DNA of 64,000 nt, taken from contig JAQWSN010000006.1 in NCBI GenBank assembly GCA_029243165.1, forward strand, positions 46,083-110,082. Direction: 5' to 3'. The position numbers were made by a program, and so were the translations under genes. Shown piece by piece: positions 12,531 through 45,507 of the stretch (positions are counted from its first letter, which is position 1; each line of letters starts with the position of its first letter). This DNA comes from Flavobacteriaceae bacterium. GTDB lineage: Bacteria > Bacteroidota > Bacteroidia > Flavobacteriales > Flavobacteriaceae. The notes beneath the pieces are model-generated. The model was given only the letters and a program-made list of their open reading frames with translations. It was not told the origin of the DNA and did no database searches.

Positions 12531-13232
12531 TTAATTTTCGTTTTGAGCTACATTGGCTCTACTGTAACTGCTTTTCAGAATATCCAAAACCTTACGTTTA
12601 AAATAGATTTCAGAGTTTAGTTCCTCTTCAACTGAACGCAATAAATTCAATGCCTGCTTTTTTCTCCTAGCTTCTTCAGATTTGTTAATTTCTAAATGTT
12701 CAAAAGCCAAATTCATGAGTGAATCAATTTCTAAATTCAAAAGATTTTCTTCTAGGGAAGCAGACCAGACTTTGTCATTCAGTTTGTCTTTAAGTTCAAT
12801 TTGAACAATTTTTTTGTCAAAATTTGGACGCACAATAAATGGAATGATCGCCTGTTTTTCTGTAAAAGTTAAGACAGTCTCCCTCCGAAGTTTTTTTATC
12901 GATTCGGTTTTTGGGAGAACTGTCTCTTCCTCAAGGACAAAAGGTTTATTATCCAGTTCATTGAGTATTTCTTTTGAGGAGGGGCTTTCAAAGCTGACAC
13001 CCTCCGTATTTTGAAATTCTAGAAGTGAGGACTTTTGAATTGTAAAAAAGGCTGCTGTACCGAGAGCAAGAACAAAGATTGCAGCCGTACTCCAAATTAT
13101 TTTTTTCGAACGAATTTTACTTTGATCTTTTGCAAGTCGTGTTGAAAGAGTGTCCCAAAGTTCAGGAGTAGGCGTTACCCTTTGAGACTCTAGTTTTTCT
13201 TTAATTAAGGAATCAATTTTATGCTTTTTCAT
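12531..13232 (-). CDS. putative anti-sigma factor (single-pass membrane protein)
   Basis: 233 aa. Cytoplasmic N-terminus and one TM (IIWSTAAIFVLALGTAAFFTI). Overlaps the upstream ECF sigma gene by 14 nt. Confidence 0.6.
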   Translation of the reverse strand: MKKHKIDSLIKEKLESQRVTPTPELWDTLSTRLAKDQSKIRSKKIIWSTAAIFVLALGTAAFFTIQKSSLLEFQNTEGVSFESPSSKEILNELDNKPFVLEEETVLPKTESIKKLRRETVLTFTEKQAIIPFIVRPNFDKKIVQIELKDKLNDKVWSASLEENLLNLEIDSLMNLAFEHLEINKSEEARRKKQALNLLRSVEEELNSEIYFKRKVLDILKSSYSRANVAQNEN

Positions 13233-13785
13233 TTTTTTTTAAATGATTTTCGTTTATTTTTTTTTGCAGTTTTACCCTTGCTCTGGACAAATCGGACTTT
13301 GAAGTTCCTACTGGAATATTTAAAGTTTGTGCAATTTCCTTGTGAGCTAGTCCCTCAATTGCATAGAGAATAAAAACCACTTTCTGATTTTCAGGCAATT
13401 GATCAATCCAAAGCTGTACGTTTTCTTGTAACCCATCGTATGACGGTATTTCATGAAACTGTTTTTGTTCAAACACCTCTTCCGTATCCGTAAAGATCAA
13501 TTGGTTATTGAGTCTTAGAAATGATAGGGATTCATTGACAATTATTTTTCTGAGCCAACCCTCAAAATTGGAGGTGTTTTTAAATTGATTCAATTTGCTA
13601 AAGGCTTTGTAGAATGCCTTCATTAAAACATCCTCTGCATGCTGTAAGTCTTTAATGTAGTAACGAGCTACTGCTAGCATTTTAGGAGCATGCTGGTTGT
13701 AAAGCATTAATTGAGCTACTCGATCATTAGCCTTTGCTTTTTTGATGAGTTCTGTTTCTTCTGGAAATAATGCTCTAATTGTCAA
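13219..13785 (-). CDS. RNA polymerase ECF-type sigma-70 factor
   Basis: 188 aa. Region 2 (..FEGWLRKIIVNESLSFLR) and region 4 HTH (HKEIAQTLNIPVGTSKSDLSRARVKL). Confidence 0.9.
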   Translation of the reverse strand: MTIRALFPEETELIKKAKANDRVAQLMLYNQHAPKMLAVARYYIKDLQHAEDVLMKAFYKAFSKLNQFKNTSNFEGWLRKIIVNESLSFLRLNNQLIFTDTEEVFEQKQFHEIPSYDGLQENVQLWIDQLPENQKVVFILYAIEGLAHKEIAQTLNIPVGTSKSDLSRARVKLQKKINENHLKKNEKA

Positions 13786-21461: not shown

Positions 21462-22058
21462 TCATAATGCGTTTATTTTTTTTTGAACCGCACTGGGCTG
21501 TCTTTTTAATAATTCTGCAACTTTATCAATCCGTCCAAATACATCATAGGCTCTTTTCATTAAACGTATTTCTTTGTCACTCCACCTTTCATAGGCTCTT
21601 TCATAGAGTTTTCTGGTTTCTAATTGTGAGAAGCTAAATTTTGACTCCTCTTTGCGGGGAAGATTTGCAACATATTTTTTTCCTTTTTGTATGAGTTGGT
21701 TAATCTCTTCTTCCGTTAATTTTGGTGCGATCAATTCTTTTTTTTCATTAACAAAATTGGATTGAACAGTTTCTGTTTTTGTTCTGTAAAAGTGCCACTC
21801 AAGATGCTCAGGGTTTGTTTTACTGTATTGAAATTTGCATTGAGGTATGAGATGGAGCCCTCCTTTTTCTTTTAGGTTTTTTAAAAATCTCCGAAAATGA
21901 CTTCCGTTGTTTTTATCCCTTTCTATCAGTTTTTTTCTAGCCAAAATAGGATACAAATCGGTACTTCTCAGGTCATCTTTATTGATATCCTCAAGATGTT
22001 TTTGAATAGCTCTGCTAATTCTTCTTGCTTTTTGAAATTCTTCGTGGCTGATTTTCAT
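21462..22058 (-). CDS. orphan basic protein with Myb/SANT-like C-terminal helix bundle
   Basis: 198 aa, Lys/Arg-rich. C-terminus WSDKEIRLMKRAYDVFGRIDKVAELLKRQPSAVQKKI resembles a Myb/SANT repeat. No other family recognised. Confidence 0.35.
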   Translation of the reverse strand: MKISHEEFQKARRISRAIQKHLEDINKDDLRSTDLYPILARKKLIERDKNNGSHFRRFLKNLKEKGGLHLIPQCKFQYSKTNPEHLEWHFYRTKTETVQSNFVNEKKELIAPKLTEEEINQLIQKGKKYVANLPRKEESKFSFSQLETRKLYERAYERWSDKEIRLMKRAYDVFGRIDKVAELLKRQPSAVQKKINAL

Positions 22059-41334: not shown

Positions 41335-42217
41335 AAATTAAGAAGTACGCTGCCATTGATGTAGGTTCCAACGCAATTCGGATGCTGGTTTCAAATGTAA
41401 TTAATCACAAAGGAAAAAGAACCATTTTGAAAAATGCACTGGTTCGTGTTCCTATTCGTCTTGGTGAAGATTCATTTACTAGTGGTAGCATATCAAAAAA
41501 AATAAGAAACGCATCGTTAAATCGATGAAAGCCTTTAAAATGTTAATGAAGGTTCATGGAGTCAAAGATTACATGGCTTATGCAACTTCTGCACTACGAG
41601 AGGCTAAAAATGGCTCAAAAGTAGTCAAGGAAGTTTTGAGTAAATCGGGAATTCAGATTGAAATAATTGACGGTAAAAAAGAAGCGAAAATAATTTCCAA
41701 TACCAATGTTTTTGATGTAGTAGGGAAAGAGAAGACCTTTTTGTATGTTGATGTAGGGGGCGGTAGTACGGAATTTAGTATTCTTAAAAACGGTAAGAGA
41801 ATTCATTCCAAATCATTTAAAATTGGAACAGTAAGACTTTTAAACAATGGTGTGTCTGATGAGATGTGGGAACACGCTCAAAAGTGGGTGAAAGAGAAAA
41901 CTAAGGAATACAATAAAATTTACTTGCTGGGTACAGGAGGAAATATTAACAAACTACATAAAATAGCAGGAATCAAAGACAACCGACCGATTACTTTTTT
42001 AACGCTAAACGCAATCTATGCCCGTCTGAGTAAAATGACGTATGAGGAACGAATCGTTGAATTGGGTTTGAATCCCGATCGGTCAGATGTGATCTTGCCT
42101 GCGGCAAAACTCTTTCTAAGAACACTTAATTGGAGTGGTGCCAAAGTAGTTTACGTTCCTAAAGTGGGACTTTCAGACGGAATGATTCGTGAACTTTGTA
42201 AAAAGAAAAAAAATTAA
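41331..42217 (+). pseudogene. ppx: exopolyphosphatase Ppx/GppA-family gene interrupted by a -1 frame break in an A8 run
   Basis: ORFs 41331..41528 (AAIDVGSNAIRML actin-like phosphate-1 motif) and 41525..42217 (ATSALREAKNG.., DVGGGSTEF) are the two halves of one Ppx. The frame changes at 41495..41502. Confidence 0.85.
41495..41502 (+). other. A8 homopolymer, slippery A_AAA_AAA in the ppx zero frame
   Basis: Zero-frame codons TCA AAA AAA ATA. The -1 frame continues AAT AAG AAA CGC ATC GTT AAA TCG ATG (NKKRIVKSM), joining the downstream ORF. Confidence 0.9.
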
Positions 42218-42798
42218 CCGTGAATGGTTTCCTGATTTCCCAAAGTTCCCATTAGTGTTGCTTCATATTTTAAAAGTGCTTCCCATTTTTCGTCAACTTT
42301 TTGTCTCGAAGTACCATATTGACGTGCAAATCCCAAAAACAAAGTGTAATGATTGGCTTCACTGACCATTAATTTACGATAAAAATTGCGCAGTTTAGAA
42401 TCTTCCAATTCTTCAGAAAGTATTCTAAAACGCTCACAACTTCTTGCCTCAATAAGCGCAGCATAAAGCAATTTGTGTACTAGATGGTCCGTTTTTGAAC
42501 CCCCTTTTGGAAAAAATTTACGTAGTTGGATTACGTAAAAATCTTTTCGTTCTCGCCCTAATTTTAATCCTCTTTCAAGAATCAAGTCATGAACCATTTT
42601 AAAGTGGCTCATTTCTTCTTGTGCTAGATCGGTCATTGCTGATACAAGTTCTGTAAGATGAGGGAAACCAATGATCATTGAAATTGCAGTACTAGCAGCC
42701 TTTTGTTCACAATAAGCATGATCGGTAAGTATTTCTTGAATATTCTTTTGGGCAATGTTGGCCCATCGAGGATCGGTAGGTAATTTAAGTCCAAGCAT
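42214..42798 (-). CDS. miaE: tRNA-(ms2io6A)-hydroxylase MiaE-like di-iron protein
   Basis: 194 aa. LTDHAYCEQKAAS, EEMSHF and EARSCERF ferritin-like motifs characteristic of MiaE. Confidence 0.75.
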   Translation of the reverse strand: MLGLKLPTDPRWANIAQKNIQEILTDHAYCEQKAASTAISMIIGFPHLTELVSAMTDLAQEEMSHFKMVHDLILERGLKLGRERKDFYVIQLRKFFPKGGSKTDHLVHKLLYAALIEARSCERFRILSEELEDSKLRNFYRKLMVSEANHYTLFLGFARQYGTSRQKVDEKWEALLKYEATLMGTLGNQETIHG

Positions 42799-42803
42799 AA
42801 TTT

Positions 42804-43520
42804 TTAGAAGTCAAGGTCAAATTTTTTCCGAAGAGTATCCAAAGCTGGATTAATTTTTACCAGATGTTTGTATTTTTCTGGAGCTGAAAACACTGCTTCT
42901 TCTTTTATGGATTCTGTGATTTTGAATTCGATTTGTATTCCGTAGTGGTTTAATTGTTTTCTCAAAAAGGGAAGTAACTCATCCGCTTCCCGCTTCATTT
43001 CAACCTTATTCATATCATTGGCTACGGTAAAGAGAAGGGTTGACGGATCTTTTAGGTCTGGTTCGCGCATGCGCATAATGGATGCTATGTTTTGTTTCCC
43101 CTCGCGCTTTATTTTTTCTGCATACTCATTCCAAAGTTGTAGAAGGGTACTTTTTTCAAAAGACTCTTCGGGTAGATTTTCTTCTATTACTTTAGGTTGA
43201 TTGATTTTTTTTGCTTCCTTTTTAAGAGCAATACTGGAAAGGGAGAATCCAGAAACTTTACGATTTAAGTGCTCTTGTTTGTTTTCTTCAGTTTTCTTTT
43301 TGTATTGACTTTTTTGATCAGCGACTTCGGTACTTGTCTTTTCGGATTTACTGTAGGTTTTTGGTTCTATTACAGAGGATTGTTCTTTGGCAACAGGATT
43401 TGAATTTTGATCGGGGATTAAATTTGATTCAGGGAAGTTTTTTACTTTTTGTTGTGTATGAAACTTGGCAAGTGAGGGATCCATTTCATTGGCTAATTTT
43501 GCTGGTATTATGTAGTCTTT
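42804..43520 (-). CDS. dnaX: tau-specific C-terminal part of DNA polymerase III DnaX, in the -1 frame relative to the N-terminal ORF
   Basis: The frame of ORF 42804..43484 stays open upstream to at least 43538 (FQWRKKKDYIIPAKLANEMDPS..). It contains a low-complexity linker followed by a conserved-looking C-terminal domain. Confidence 0.7.
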   Translation of the reverse strand, partial: KDYIIPAKLANEMDPSLAKFHTQQKVKNFPESNLIPDQNSNPVAKEQSSVIEPKTYSKSEKTSTEVADQKSQYKKKTEENKQEHLNRKVSGFSLSSIALKKEAKKINQPKVIEENLPEESFEKSTLLQLWNEYAEKIKREGKQNIASIMRMREPDLKDPSTLLFTVANDMNKVEMKREADELLPFLRKQLNHYGIQIEFKITESIKEEAVFSAPEKYKHLVKINPALDTLRKKFDLDF

Positions 43521-44590
43521 TTTTTTTCTCCATTGAAATTGAGCGAAGCAAGTTGCATCATAGAGAGTTCTACATGAACTCGCTTGTTGTTTACACTTTT
43601 GTAATTAATTTCAAATGAATTGATTAAGGCAATAGCATCAAGTAAATATTCAGTTGTAAGAGGCTCTGTTGCTTCTTGATAGTTTTTTTTAACATCTTCT
43701 CCTAATTCCATAAGAGCCAACGTATTTGGGTCTTTTGCTAGCATGAGATTCCTGAAAAAATCGCCTAAGCCTTTTATGAATTGTAAAGGGTCAATACCCC
43801 TTTTGAGAAGATCGTTGTAGGCAGTTAGAATACCTGGAATATCATTTTTGAAAATGATTTTTCCCAATTCATTGTAGGTTTGGTGATCCAGTAAGTTAAG
43901 ATTGTCAGCCACGGCTTTAGCAGATAAATTCCCTTGAGTAAAACTTACCATCCGATCAAAAATAGATAAGGCGTCACGTAAAGCTCCTTCAGCTTTCTGG
44001 GCAATTAGGTAAAGTGCAGTTTCCTCAAATTGTAAATTTCTGTCTTTTGCTATTTTAACCAAGTAATGTTGAATATCGTTGACGGAGATTCTTTTAAAGT
44101 CATAAACTTGACATCTGGAAAGTACAGTAGGAATAATTTTATTTTTCTCTGTAGTTGCTAAAATAAAAATGACATGTTTTGGTGGTTCTTCCAACGTTTT
44201 TAAAAAGGCATTAAAAGCTGCATTGGAGAGCATGTGTGCCTCATCGATAATGTAAATTTTATGCGAACCTACCTGTGGGGGAATCCGGACTTGCTCATTG
44301 ATTTTTCGAATGTCTTCAACGGAATTATTCGAAGCGGCATCAAGTTCAAAAATATTAAAGGCAAAGTCGTCATCGGTACTTTCTTTTTGAGAAGACTTAT
44401 TGATTTGTTTTGCAAGGATTCTCGCACAAGATGTTTTTCCAACACCACGAGGGCCGCAAAACAGTAATGCTTGTGCCAGTTGTTCAGTTTCTAGGCTATT
44501 TTTTAAGGTTTGAGTAATACTTTGTTGCCCGACTACCTCTTCAAAAGTAGTGGGTCTGTATTTCAAAGCAGAAACAACAAATGACTCCAT
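43508..44590 (-). CDS. dnaX: DNA polymerase III subunit gamma/tau, N-terminal gamma-length ORF (360 aa)
   Basis: Walker A GPRGVGKTS, Walker B IYIIDEAHML and sensor SRCQVYDF. Terminates ..GEKKKTT* two codons after the A10 run. Confidence 0.95.
   Translation of the reverse strand: MESFVVSALKYRPTTFEEVVGQQSITQTLKNSLETEQLAQALLFCGPRGVGKTSCARILAKQINKSSQKESTDDDFAFNIFELDAASNNSVEDIRKINEQVRIPPQVGSHKIYIIDEAHMLSNAAFNAFLKTLEEPPKHVIFILATTEKNKIIPTVLSRCQVYDFKRISVNDIQHYLVKIAKDRNLQFEETALYLIAQKAEGALRDALSIFDRMVSFTQGNLSAKAVADNLNLLDHQTYNELGKIIFKNDIPGILTAYNDLLKRGIDPLQFIKGLGDFFRNLMLAKDPNTLALMELGEDVKKNYQEATEPLTTEYLLDAIALINSFEINYKSVNNKRVHVELSMMQLASLNFNGEKKKTT
43518..43527 (-). other. A10 homopolymer (mRNA sense) containing an in-frame A_AAA_AAG slippery heptamer
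   Basis: Minus strand reads GGA GAA AAA AAA AAG ACT ACA TAA. The heptamer A(43523) AAA(43522-20) AAG(43519-17) is in the same phase as the E. coli dnaX site. Confidence 0.9.
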
Positions 44591-44680
44591 TAGAACAAAT
44601 ATAAAAAATCAGTTTCCGGATTCATTCCTAAGATAGAAGATATTCCCTGTAAATTATCAACAAATAGCTAACTTAGCACC

Positions 44681-44970
44681 GCAGGCCATCTTATCGCTTT
44701 TTTTTCGTAAAGAAGAGGAAAGTCCGGACACCCTAGAGCAGCATAGCGGGTAACACCCGTCCTCCGTTTCGGCGGAGCGGACCAGTGCAACAGAAAGCAA
44801 GTACAGTTCGGCTGTAGTGAAATCAGGTAAACTCTATGCGGTGCAACGCCAAGTAGTTCTACAATTAAGGGTAGCTCGCCCAATGTAGACGGGTAGGCGG
44901 CTAGAATGCAAGAGTAATTTTGCATCAAGATAAATGATAAGACTCGACAGAATCCGGCTTATCGGCCTGC
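44681..44970 (+). ncRNA. rnpB: RNase P RNA (bacterial type A-like), compact at about 290 nt
   Basis: P1 GCAGGCC/GGCCTGC. P4 strands GAGGAAAGTCCGGAC (44715..44729) and ACAGAATCCGGCTTATC (44947..44963). Conserved ACCAGTGCAACAGAAAGCAAG and GGTAAACTC. Followed by T8. Confidence 0.9.
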
Positions 44971-44976
44971 TTTTTT

Positions 44977-45507
44977 TTAACTATTAAAAAAGGAAAAAGT
45001 AGCACTTCCGTAATTTCTGCTAGAGTCATAGCCTTCTAGGCCTGTGAGATCTACTTTGTTGAAGTGTTCGATAATGATTTGTCCCTGGGGGCTTATTTTT
45101 TTTTGTGCTAGAGCTATGATTTTTTTGTAAGTTTCTGTATCAAAATCGTAGGGAGGATCAGCAAAAATCAAATCGTAGCTACTTTTTTCTTCTTCTAAAA
45201 ATGTGATACAATCTTTTTGAACAACTCTAATTTCAAAAGAGAGCAATTTTGCTGTGGATTGAATGAATTGAATGCAATGTCTGTTTTTGTCTACAGCCGT
45301 AAGCAAGGGAACACCTCGAGAGGCAAATTCATAACTAATACTCCCTGTACCCGAAAATAAATCCAAAACCGTGAGTTCAGAGAAATCGATTTGATGTTGT
45401 AAAATGTTGAAAAGGGCTTCCTTAGAACGATCTGTGGTGGGACGAACAGGGAGTTTTTTGGGAGCTAGAATTCTTCTACCCTTATGAATACCTGAAATGA
45501 TACGCAT
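44977..45507 (-). CDS. rsmD: 16S rRNA (guanine966-N2)-methyltransferase RsmD
   Basis: 176 aa. MRIISG..RPTTDR..EALFN N-terminus, SAM motif LDLFSGTGS and DPPY. Confidence 0.9.
   Translation of the reverse strand: MRIISGIHKGRRILAPKKLPVRPTTDRSKEALFNILQHQIDFSELTVLDLFSGTGSISYEFASRGVPLLTAVDKNRHCIQFIQSTAKLLSFEIRVVQKDCITFLEEEKSSYDLIFADPPYDFDTETYKKIIALAQKKISPQGQIIIEHFNKVDLTGLEGYDSSRNYGSATFSFFNS

Follow-up and report, generated by a model that had tools for sequence, protein, structure and literature searches.

The closest described counterparts of the gene analyzed here are the two-ORF (open reading frame) dnaX genes reported by Antonov, Coakley, Atkins, Baranov, and Borodovsky (2013; NAR 41:6514, PMC3711429), a set of 17 genes from 12 genera, nine of which contain a run of ten A residues (A10). 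In Figure S3 of that study, the sequences of Flavobacterium johnsoniae, F. psychrophilum, Cytophaga hutchinsonii, Capnocytophaga ochracea, Chlorobium spp., and Coraliomargarita are aligned with the A9 run of Thermus. Transcriptional realignment was deduced there for the reversed dnaX layout (PMC3711429), and the same view is repeated in the review of Atkins et al. (2016). The gene considered in the present work is dnaX of an uncultured marine Flavobacteriaceae lineage outside the 2013 set. It is located in a stretch of 64,000 nt (hereafter, the window) of contig JAQWSN010000006.1 from the Flavobacteriaceae bacterium metagenome-assembled genome (MAG) GCA_029243165.1, and all coordinates are given as window positions. 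This locus and the genes of Antonov et al. are alike in the gene itself, the position of the site (the end of domain III), the A10-G motif, the early stop in the zero frame, the tau C-terminus in the -1 frame, and the class (Flavobacteriia). Conservation of the frame transition and of the poly-A motif was also found, and the same A10-G is present in the published Flavobacterium alignment. The reversed dnaX layout was thus already described in 2013, and the locus shows all of the defining features of that class. What is new in comparison with that work is the dense interleaving of split and fused genes among close relatives and the hairpin beside the run. No experimental tests of Bacteroidota dnaX recoding were found in the literature searched.

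Slippage on the A9 run of dnaX was demonstrated in Thermus thermophilus (Larsen et al. 2000, PNAS 97:1683). The Thermus gene and the gene in the window both carry, at the gamma/tau boundary, an A-run of 9 nt or more (A9 and A10, respectively) that follows GGAG or GAG. In both, stops lie close by in the non-tau frames and two products arise from heterogeneous mRNA, presumably so in the window. They differ in what is templated: Thermus templates tau, and slipped transcripts give gamma, whereas the window templates gamma, and slipped transcripts with one additional A would give tau. In close relatives with an A11 run, the templated frame encodes tau, as in Thermus. The dnaX gene of Escherichia coli shares with the window the heptamer and its phase, as well as the production of two clamp-loader subunits with common domains I–III. 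However, it is gamma that is made from the shifted frame in E. coli, so that polarity is reversed in the window. In addition, the window is without the downstream stem-loop that is positioned ~5–7 nt past the heptamer in E. coli, and its GGAG element is misplaced relative to the spacing of ~10 nt. Another comparable case is mxiE of Shigella flexneri, in which two overlapping ORFs are likewise fused into a long product by a non-templated nucleotide at a homopolymer, although the gene and its function are different and the run in the sense strand consists of T residues.

According to the Pfam analysis, the 360-aa zero-frame ORF of the window contains the DNA_pol3_delta2, DNAX_ATPase_lid, and DNA_pol3_gamma3 domains. 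It matches positions 1–370 of the 614 positions of the NCBIfam model NF011531 (Bacteroidota DnaX model) and also TIGR02397 (dnaX_nterm). The 226-aa ORF located downstream matches positions 406–612 of the same 614-position model (E 5.5e-23). The minus-strand 3' end of the 360-aa ORF reads AAT TTC AAT GGA GAA AAA AAA AAG ACT ACA TAA; the run begins at codon position 2 of GAA, and the zero-frame phase of the heptamer is that of E. coli dnaX. On the minus strand, the -1 frame contains no stop from 43604 to 42804, and stops are found near the run in both non-tau frames (7 nt past it in the zero frame and 29 nt past it in the +1 frame). A one-base shift at the A10 run gives a 595-aa product reading ..NFNGEKKKDYIIPAKLANEMDPS.., and the predicted junction GEKKKDYIIPA agrees with the corresponding sequences of uninterrupted relatives, which read GEKKK[DG][YF][IL]IPA or GEKKNYIIPAS. 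The first-pass annotation of this DNA had proposed a dnaX gene split at A10, with a gamma-length product in the zero frame and the tau C-terminus in the -1 frame, that is, with a polarity opposite to that of E. coli; it had also pointed out A_AAA_AAG in the E. coli-type phase and a product of about 595 aa after a -1 shift. Sequence and profile matches agree on the split, the ORFs of the window display the reversed polarity, the heptamer is seen in the window sequence, and joining of the frames at the run yields 595 aa. All factual statements of that annotation were borne out when the sequence was reread.

Comparison with related sequences indicates that the two-frame dnaX is genuine and evolutionarily maintained and that its recoding site is conserved. 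In a protein search with the fused product, all 27 clusters with N-terminal identity of 82–99% had a length of 356–401 aa, and 26 of these terminate at GEKKK followed by two or six residues. The lone exception, cluster P0019, has the sequence GEKKKKKF and reads on through a longer Lys run. Full-length homologues (570–598 aa) appear only at 54–70% identity. The DNA of relatives from ENA, JGI, and NCBI assemblies (L001, L081–L100, and L110) was examined, and GGAG-A10-G is present in all these split relatives except one, despite DNA identity down to 79–83%; the exceptional one has GGA-A12-G resulting from a G-to-A change, with the length kept. A same-species variant of the 360-aa ORF is encoded on 87 contigs and a variant of the 226-aa ORF on 71 contigs. 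These sequences point to A10 as the dominant DNA state in the species.

An artefact or a recent mutation, meaning that the true genome contains A11 and a single ORF or that the gene is a decaying pseudogene, has to be weighed against this conclusion, given that homopolymers are prone to error. A11 occurs in several sister lineages and, moreover, in a contig that is 98.8% identical to the window (L112; JGI 3300046734 contig Ga0494541_0052248, 1.9 kb), where the A11 run at 451–461 leaves a single uninterrupted dnaX ORF reading GEKKKDYIIPAK. Either the same species harbors A11 as a real minority allele, represented by L112, or the homopolymer of this contig was miscalled. An assembly error is rejected because the A10 two-frame layout recurs across many independent assemblies of diverged relatives, including all close ones. 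The layout is kept at the lowest of the above DNA identities together with an open -1 frame of ~700 nt and a conserved domain, dnaX is an essential single-copy gene, and the same layout occurs in finished isolate genomes (Antonov et al. 2013, PMC3711429). On this evidence, it is extremely improbable that the split is an artefact or a recent mutation. The first-pass annotation had warned that a sequencing error would produce the same picture and had advised comparison of the dnaX loci of relatives. That comparison has shown conservation of both the A-run and the two-frame layout in close Flavobacteriaceae relatives, and it largely removes the concern, the A11 of L112 being what is left of it. 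Regulation by phase variation at the DNA level was considered and is unlikely for an essential gene; low-level heterogeneity in populations is possible.

The relatives also define where the frame change occurs. In most of them, a TAA closes the -1 frame 8 nt 5' of the run. The zero frame stops 7 nt past the run (TAA within ATA ATA) or 22 nt past it (where the codons are ATC ATC), the third frame stops 14–38 nt past the run, and the -1 frame continues for 693–729 nt to the tau stop. A net -1 change must therefore happen at the run, as the -1 frame is shut 8 nt before it and the zero frame ends 7 or 22 nt after it; the A-run is the sole slippery element in this interval of ~25–40 nt.

Gene callers and the NCBI annotation present the locus differently, as a 360-aa DnaX and a separate 'hypothetical protein' (MDG2386368.1). 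Read literally, this would mean that the 360-aa DnaX is produced alone and that a free protein with the tau C-terminus, translated from ATG 43484 (33 nt past the run), associates with it non-covalently. That ATG is confined to the window and to L087, a relative with 99% identity. In the remaining relatives, no ATG appears in the -1 frame until 330–441 nt downstream of the run, the frame is open back to the run, and the start of the downstream ORF called by gene callers differs from one relative to another. In addition, the -1-frame residues just past the run are conserved as [DG][YF]I[IL]P, which equals the contiguous sequence of fused relatives. The absence of a conserved start, the frame open from the run, and the conserved junction argue that the downstream ORF is a continuation of dnaX and not a separate gene. 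The ATG at 43482..43484 is, judging by this comparison, probably an internal Met codon of tau, and two separately translated proteins are very improbable. Explanations without recoding are improbable even when they are taken together.

As for the tau extension itself, a search of the 226-aa ORF against Pfam-A gave no match, and neither did a sequence search against the PDB; PF28557 (DUF8439) is recorded on homologues of the ORF. The AlphaFold2 model of this part, built with 29 homologues, predicts residues 1–81 to be disordered and residues 84–222 to form a confident alpha/beta domain, with pLDDT (predicted local distance difference test) values >90 at residues 111–190. The best PDB fold matches of the model were domain I of DnaA (4TPS, 2E0G) and the N-terminal domain of DciA (8A3V, 7YKM), with weak E-values of 0.1–0.4 and Foldseek probabilities of 0.87–0.97. 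Domain I of DnaA, the N-terminal domain of DciA, and domain V of DnaX tau share the type-II KH fold (Marsin et al. 2021, PMC8216460). The fold predicted by the model is compatible with a tau-type C-terminus, although it is no proof of polymerase binding.

Split and fused layouts are interspersed across Bacteroidota. Among close relatives of the window, fused genes with A11-G (L104, L105, L106, and L111) and with A10-T (L107, L108, and L109) were found. Farther away, the gene is fused in Lutibacter (L002, A10-C), L003 (A11-T), Flavobacteriales UBA1986 (A10-G), Prevotellaceae (A10-C), and L011 (A9-G), and it is split in Paludibacteraceae, where the run is A10-C and the heptamer is A_AAA_AAC. The dnaX genes of L006, L007, L010, and L012 have no A-run at the gamma/tau site. 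In the fused genes, stops in both alternative frames are located within 0–53 nt of the run, mostly at less than 15 nt. In the neighbour-joining tree, the two layouts are interleaved, which implies at least four switches: L100 (A10) and L104 (A11) have 92.7% DNA identity, L110 and L111 are sisters, and L001 and L014, both split, fall in separate branches. The phase of the run (codon position 2 of GAA) is identical in all Bacteroidota homologues examined; it speaks equally for either mechanism of recoding, because the E-K-K-K motif is homologous.

Some lineages contain several or longer slippage-prone tracts. In L109, which belongs to the SEKKN clade, additional A10 and A9 runs are present in the tau linker, at nt 1144 and 1220 of dnaX, and the GEKKKKKF sequence of cluster P0019 implies a much longer A-run at the gamma/tau boundary. 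In L013 (Bacteroidales bacterium KA00251), at approximately nt 1286 of dnaX, a zero-frame stop is located 8 nt past an A8 run, and a further 451 nt are open in the -1 frame; judging from the sequence, this may be a second, independent split site, deeper in the linker of another Bacteroidales dnaX. In the MAGs of L010 (Lentimicrobiaceae) and L012 (Bacteroidales), dnaX seems to end at approximately codon 360–375 without an A-run, and the inspected part shows no obvious continuing frame; such genes may encode a gamma-length product only or may be arranged in another way.

The main route to tau is probably programmed slippage of RNA polymerase on the whole A-run, as suggested, for the occurrence of slippage and for its efficiency, by the comparative sequence data. 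A faithful A10 mRNA decoded normally would yield the gamma-like subunit of 360 aa, with the stop two codons past the run, and tau (~595 aa, ..GEKKKDYIIPAK..) would be produced only after a move to the -1 frame at A10. When the polymerase is on the T10 template, the entire RNA–DNA hybrid of 9–10 base pairs (bp) would consist of rA:dT, and its slippage would create a mixed pool of mRNA. Transcripts with one added A at the run (A11), and also A14 transcripts, would encode tau. Transcripts with A10, A13, A9, or A12 would be translated into proteins of gamma length, because a stop is reached within 7–29 nt in either of the other frames. Some additional tau may come from ribosomes that slip by -1 on the in-phase A_AAA_AAG. 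By analogy with tau of E. coli, the extension would tether the polymerase and the helicase. The junction peptide is identical for slippage and for ribosomal frameshifting; a peptide with an extra Lys (GEKKKKDYIIPAK, from A14 mRNA) would be producible only by slippage.

Slippage is favored because fused relatives keep A9–A11 at the same site with stops nearby, which is the Thermus pattern, and because the run can be followed by G, C, or T, the split Paludibacteraceae gene having A_AAA_AAC. Heptamers of the A_AAA_AAC type are poor bacterial shift sites (Atkins et al. 2016). Free switching between A10 and A11 is also to be expected if either template gives both frames at a useful level; Atkins et al. 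(2016) make the same point on the switching of dnaX layouts. Within the window, A10 is the longest A/T homopolymer, and the run-extension ratio drops from ~0.42 to 0.19 for lengths of at least 9 and to 0.14 for lengths of at least 10. This depletion of long A/T runs suggests that slippage matters in the organism.

The competing route is programmed -1 ribosomal frameshifting of the E. coli type on a faithful A10 mRNA. The heptamer is in the phase required for it, A_AAA_AAG is the most shift-prone bacterial heptamer (~14–16% without stimulators in E. coli systems), and in every split Flavobacteriaceae locus the run is followed by G. High shiftiness of AAG requires, however, the absence of tRNA-Lys(CUU), and unstimulated shifting of ~15% seems low for an essential subunit. 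No tRNA genes were found within the 64-kb window. Consensus folding and single-sequence folding of seven loci revealed no conserved or unusually stable structure downstream of the run: the consensus fold has no downstream helix, and the folds of the 70 nt downstream do not exceed those of shuffled sequences in stability (z-scores of approximately -1.3 to +0.5). This accords with the first-pass annotation, in which no convincing downstream hairpin had been seen. An alignment of relatives contained no conserved purine-rich Shine–Dalgarno (SD)-like motif at -10; the only SD-like element is GGAG, which lies 3 nt from the heptamer instead of ~10 nt. Bacteroidota make little use of SD pairing. The A_AAA_AAC of the split Paludibacteraceae gene and the fused A10C and A10T genes with stops in both other frames likewise stand against this route, and ribosomal frameshifting as the main source of tau appears unlikely. 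In the first-pass annotation, the heptamer was given prominence and polymerase slippage was the second option. The phase was read correctly, and the prominence is probably misplaced, as the comparative evidence favors slippage on the whole run.

Several observations weigh against the view that tau is made mainly by polymerase slippage. In all split Flavobacteriaceae loci, the phase of A_AAA_AAG is exactly right for a ribosomal shift. GAA and AAA are preferred codons in these AT-rich genomes, and the invariance of A10 is weaker evidence for a requirement for a long run, because codon bias would keep GAA and AAA. A9 runs are present in other coding regions of the window, and the polymerase of this organism may be one that slips weakly on such runs. 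As gamma is the templated product, slippage would have to be very efficient to supply enough of the essential tau. Finally, the A11 of L112 means that heterogeneity at the DNA level exists or that homopolymer calls are imperfect.

Sequences immediately 5' of the run may bear on the efficiency of slippage. In most relatives, they can form the hairpin CUCCAU-UUYR-AUGGAG, with 5–6 bp and a stability of -4.9 to -6.1 kcal/mol, which directly adjoins the first A and falls in the top 0.2–5% of the 24-nt windows of the same gene. The stem codons are Leu CTC in 14 of 14 and Gly GGA in 15 of 15 sequences, and the third position in the loop is variable; across the whole gene, invariant codon columns amount to 6.4% of the informative ones. 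In L111, the sequence CTTCAT...ATGAAG contains a compensatory C-G to U-A replacement, produced by a synonymous change of the Leu codon and a Gly-to-Glu change. The hairpin is 94.8% paired in the relatives, with this one compensatory change, and 31 of 500 shuffles do equally well. In Lutibacter (L002), the Leu-His codons are lost and a re-registered 8-bp hairpin of -8.1 kcal/mol is found. UBA1986 and Paludibacteraceae have unrelated hairpins of 4–5 bp ending 1–2 nt before their runs. The REKKN and SEKKN clades lack the hairpin. In the window, a His-to-Asn change (CTCAAT) mismatches the stem, and no fold is predicted (0 kcal/mol).

A parallel is provided by the IS630-family element of Roseiflexus, with slippage stimulated by a stem-loop (Penno et al. 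2015, PNAS, as presented in PMC5009743). In that account, a short GC-containing hairpin of the nascent RNA is located directly 5' of the slippage motif in a terminator-like arrangement, and the CUCCAU/AUGGAG of the dnaX relatives abuts the A-run likewise. The Roseiflexus motif is different in that, according to the same source, it is T5C5, slippage on it deletes one base, and the hairpin was found experimentally to be required. The dnaX hairpin is weak by comparison (5–6 bp, approximately -5 to -6 kcal/mol), absent in some clades, and mismatched in the window. That it is a selected, terminator-like stimulator of polymerase slippage, with equivalents in Lutibacter, UBA1986, and Paludibacteraceae, is a tentative and rather doubtful proposal from the sequence comparison. 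As a candidate stimulator beside the run, it is possibly a new detail and a lead. If the proposal were true, high slippage efficiency would explain the free flipping between A11 (tau templated) and A10 (gamma templated), and dnaX would provide a case of structure-stimulated transcriptional recoding in a housekeeping gene.

The coordinates of the features are collected in Table 1.

Table 1. Features of the dnaX locus and the adjacent region (window positions).
Feature	Position	Strand	Comment
dnaX zero-frame ORF, 360 aa, gamma-length, domains I–III	43508..44590	-	ends ..GEKKKTT*; NCBI MDG2386369.1
Candidate nascent-RNA hairpin abutting the A-run	43528..43543	-	CUCAAU-UUCA-AUGGAG in the window, one internal mismatch
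A10 run (T10 on the template strand), proposed recoding site	43527..43518	-	followed by G at 43517
Heptamer A_AAA_AAG in zero-frame phase; possible secondary -1 ribosomal frameshifting site	43523..43517	-	
Zero-frame stop TAA, 7 nt past the run, inside -1-frame ATA ATA (Ile-Ile)	43510..43508	-	
Third (+1) frame stop TGA, 29 nt past the run	43486..43488	-	
Tau-specific extension, -1 frame: DYIIPAKLANE junction, disordered Lys/Ser/Glu-rich linker, folded C-terminal domain	42804..43517	-	
Downstream ORF, 226 aa	42804..43484	-	NCBI MDG2386368.1, 'hypothetical protein'
ATG chosen by gene callers as start of the downstream ORF	43482..43484	-	33 nt past the run
Folded tau C-terminal domain, DUF8439, predicted KH-like alpha/beta fold	42819..43235	-	residues 84–222 of the 226-aa ORF
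RNase P RNA, bacterial class A (Rfam RF00010, 199 bits)	44678-44977	+	just upstream of dnaX, opposite strand

The Rfam scan of the window at the gathering threshold gave nothing besides the RNase P RNA. The spurious ORFs listed at 44657-44928 fall within this RNA, and in relatives the same region is located between a methyltransferase gene and dnaX. The gene order common to the relatives is DUF3822, RsmD-like methyltransferase, RNase P RNA, dnaX, MiaE-like hydroxylase, Ppx/GppA, and polyphosphate kinase. In the window, the MiaE gene (42214-42798, minus strand) begins 5 nt past the tau stop. The A9 runs in the other coding regions are located at 45096-45104 (minus strand, in ORF 44977-45507), 13232-13265, and 21476-21484. 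Three of them lie within ~50 nt of the 3' end of their ORF, and one precedes the end of the RsmD-like methyltransferase gene by ~120 nt; truncated or altered C-termini would result from slippage at these runs. As regards the collection of loci, a contig scan with the 360-aa ORF returned mostly generic AAA+ patterns and only five useful Flavobacteriia loci, and more loci were obtained via homologue-encoding contigs and a metagenome scan with the C-terminal ORF.

The analysis corrects the annotation of the locus: MDG2386369.1 ('DNA polymerase III subunit gamma/tau', 360 aa) and MDG2386368.1 ('hypothetical protein', 226 aa) represent two parts of one recoded dnaX, and related marine Flavobacteriaceae MAGs contain this mis-annotation as well. 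The locus and its relatives add many independent natural replicates to the reversed dnaX class and leave the general picture of dnaX recoding as it was. The repeated replacement of A10 by A11 and the reverse is as expected if both frames are made at comparable levels from either template, and the clade is suited to testing the efficiency of slippage in Bacteroidota and its tuning by a hairpin.

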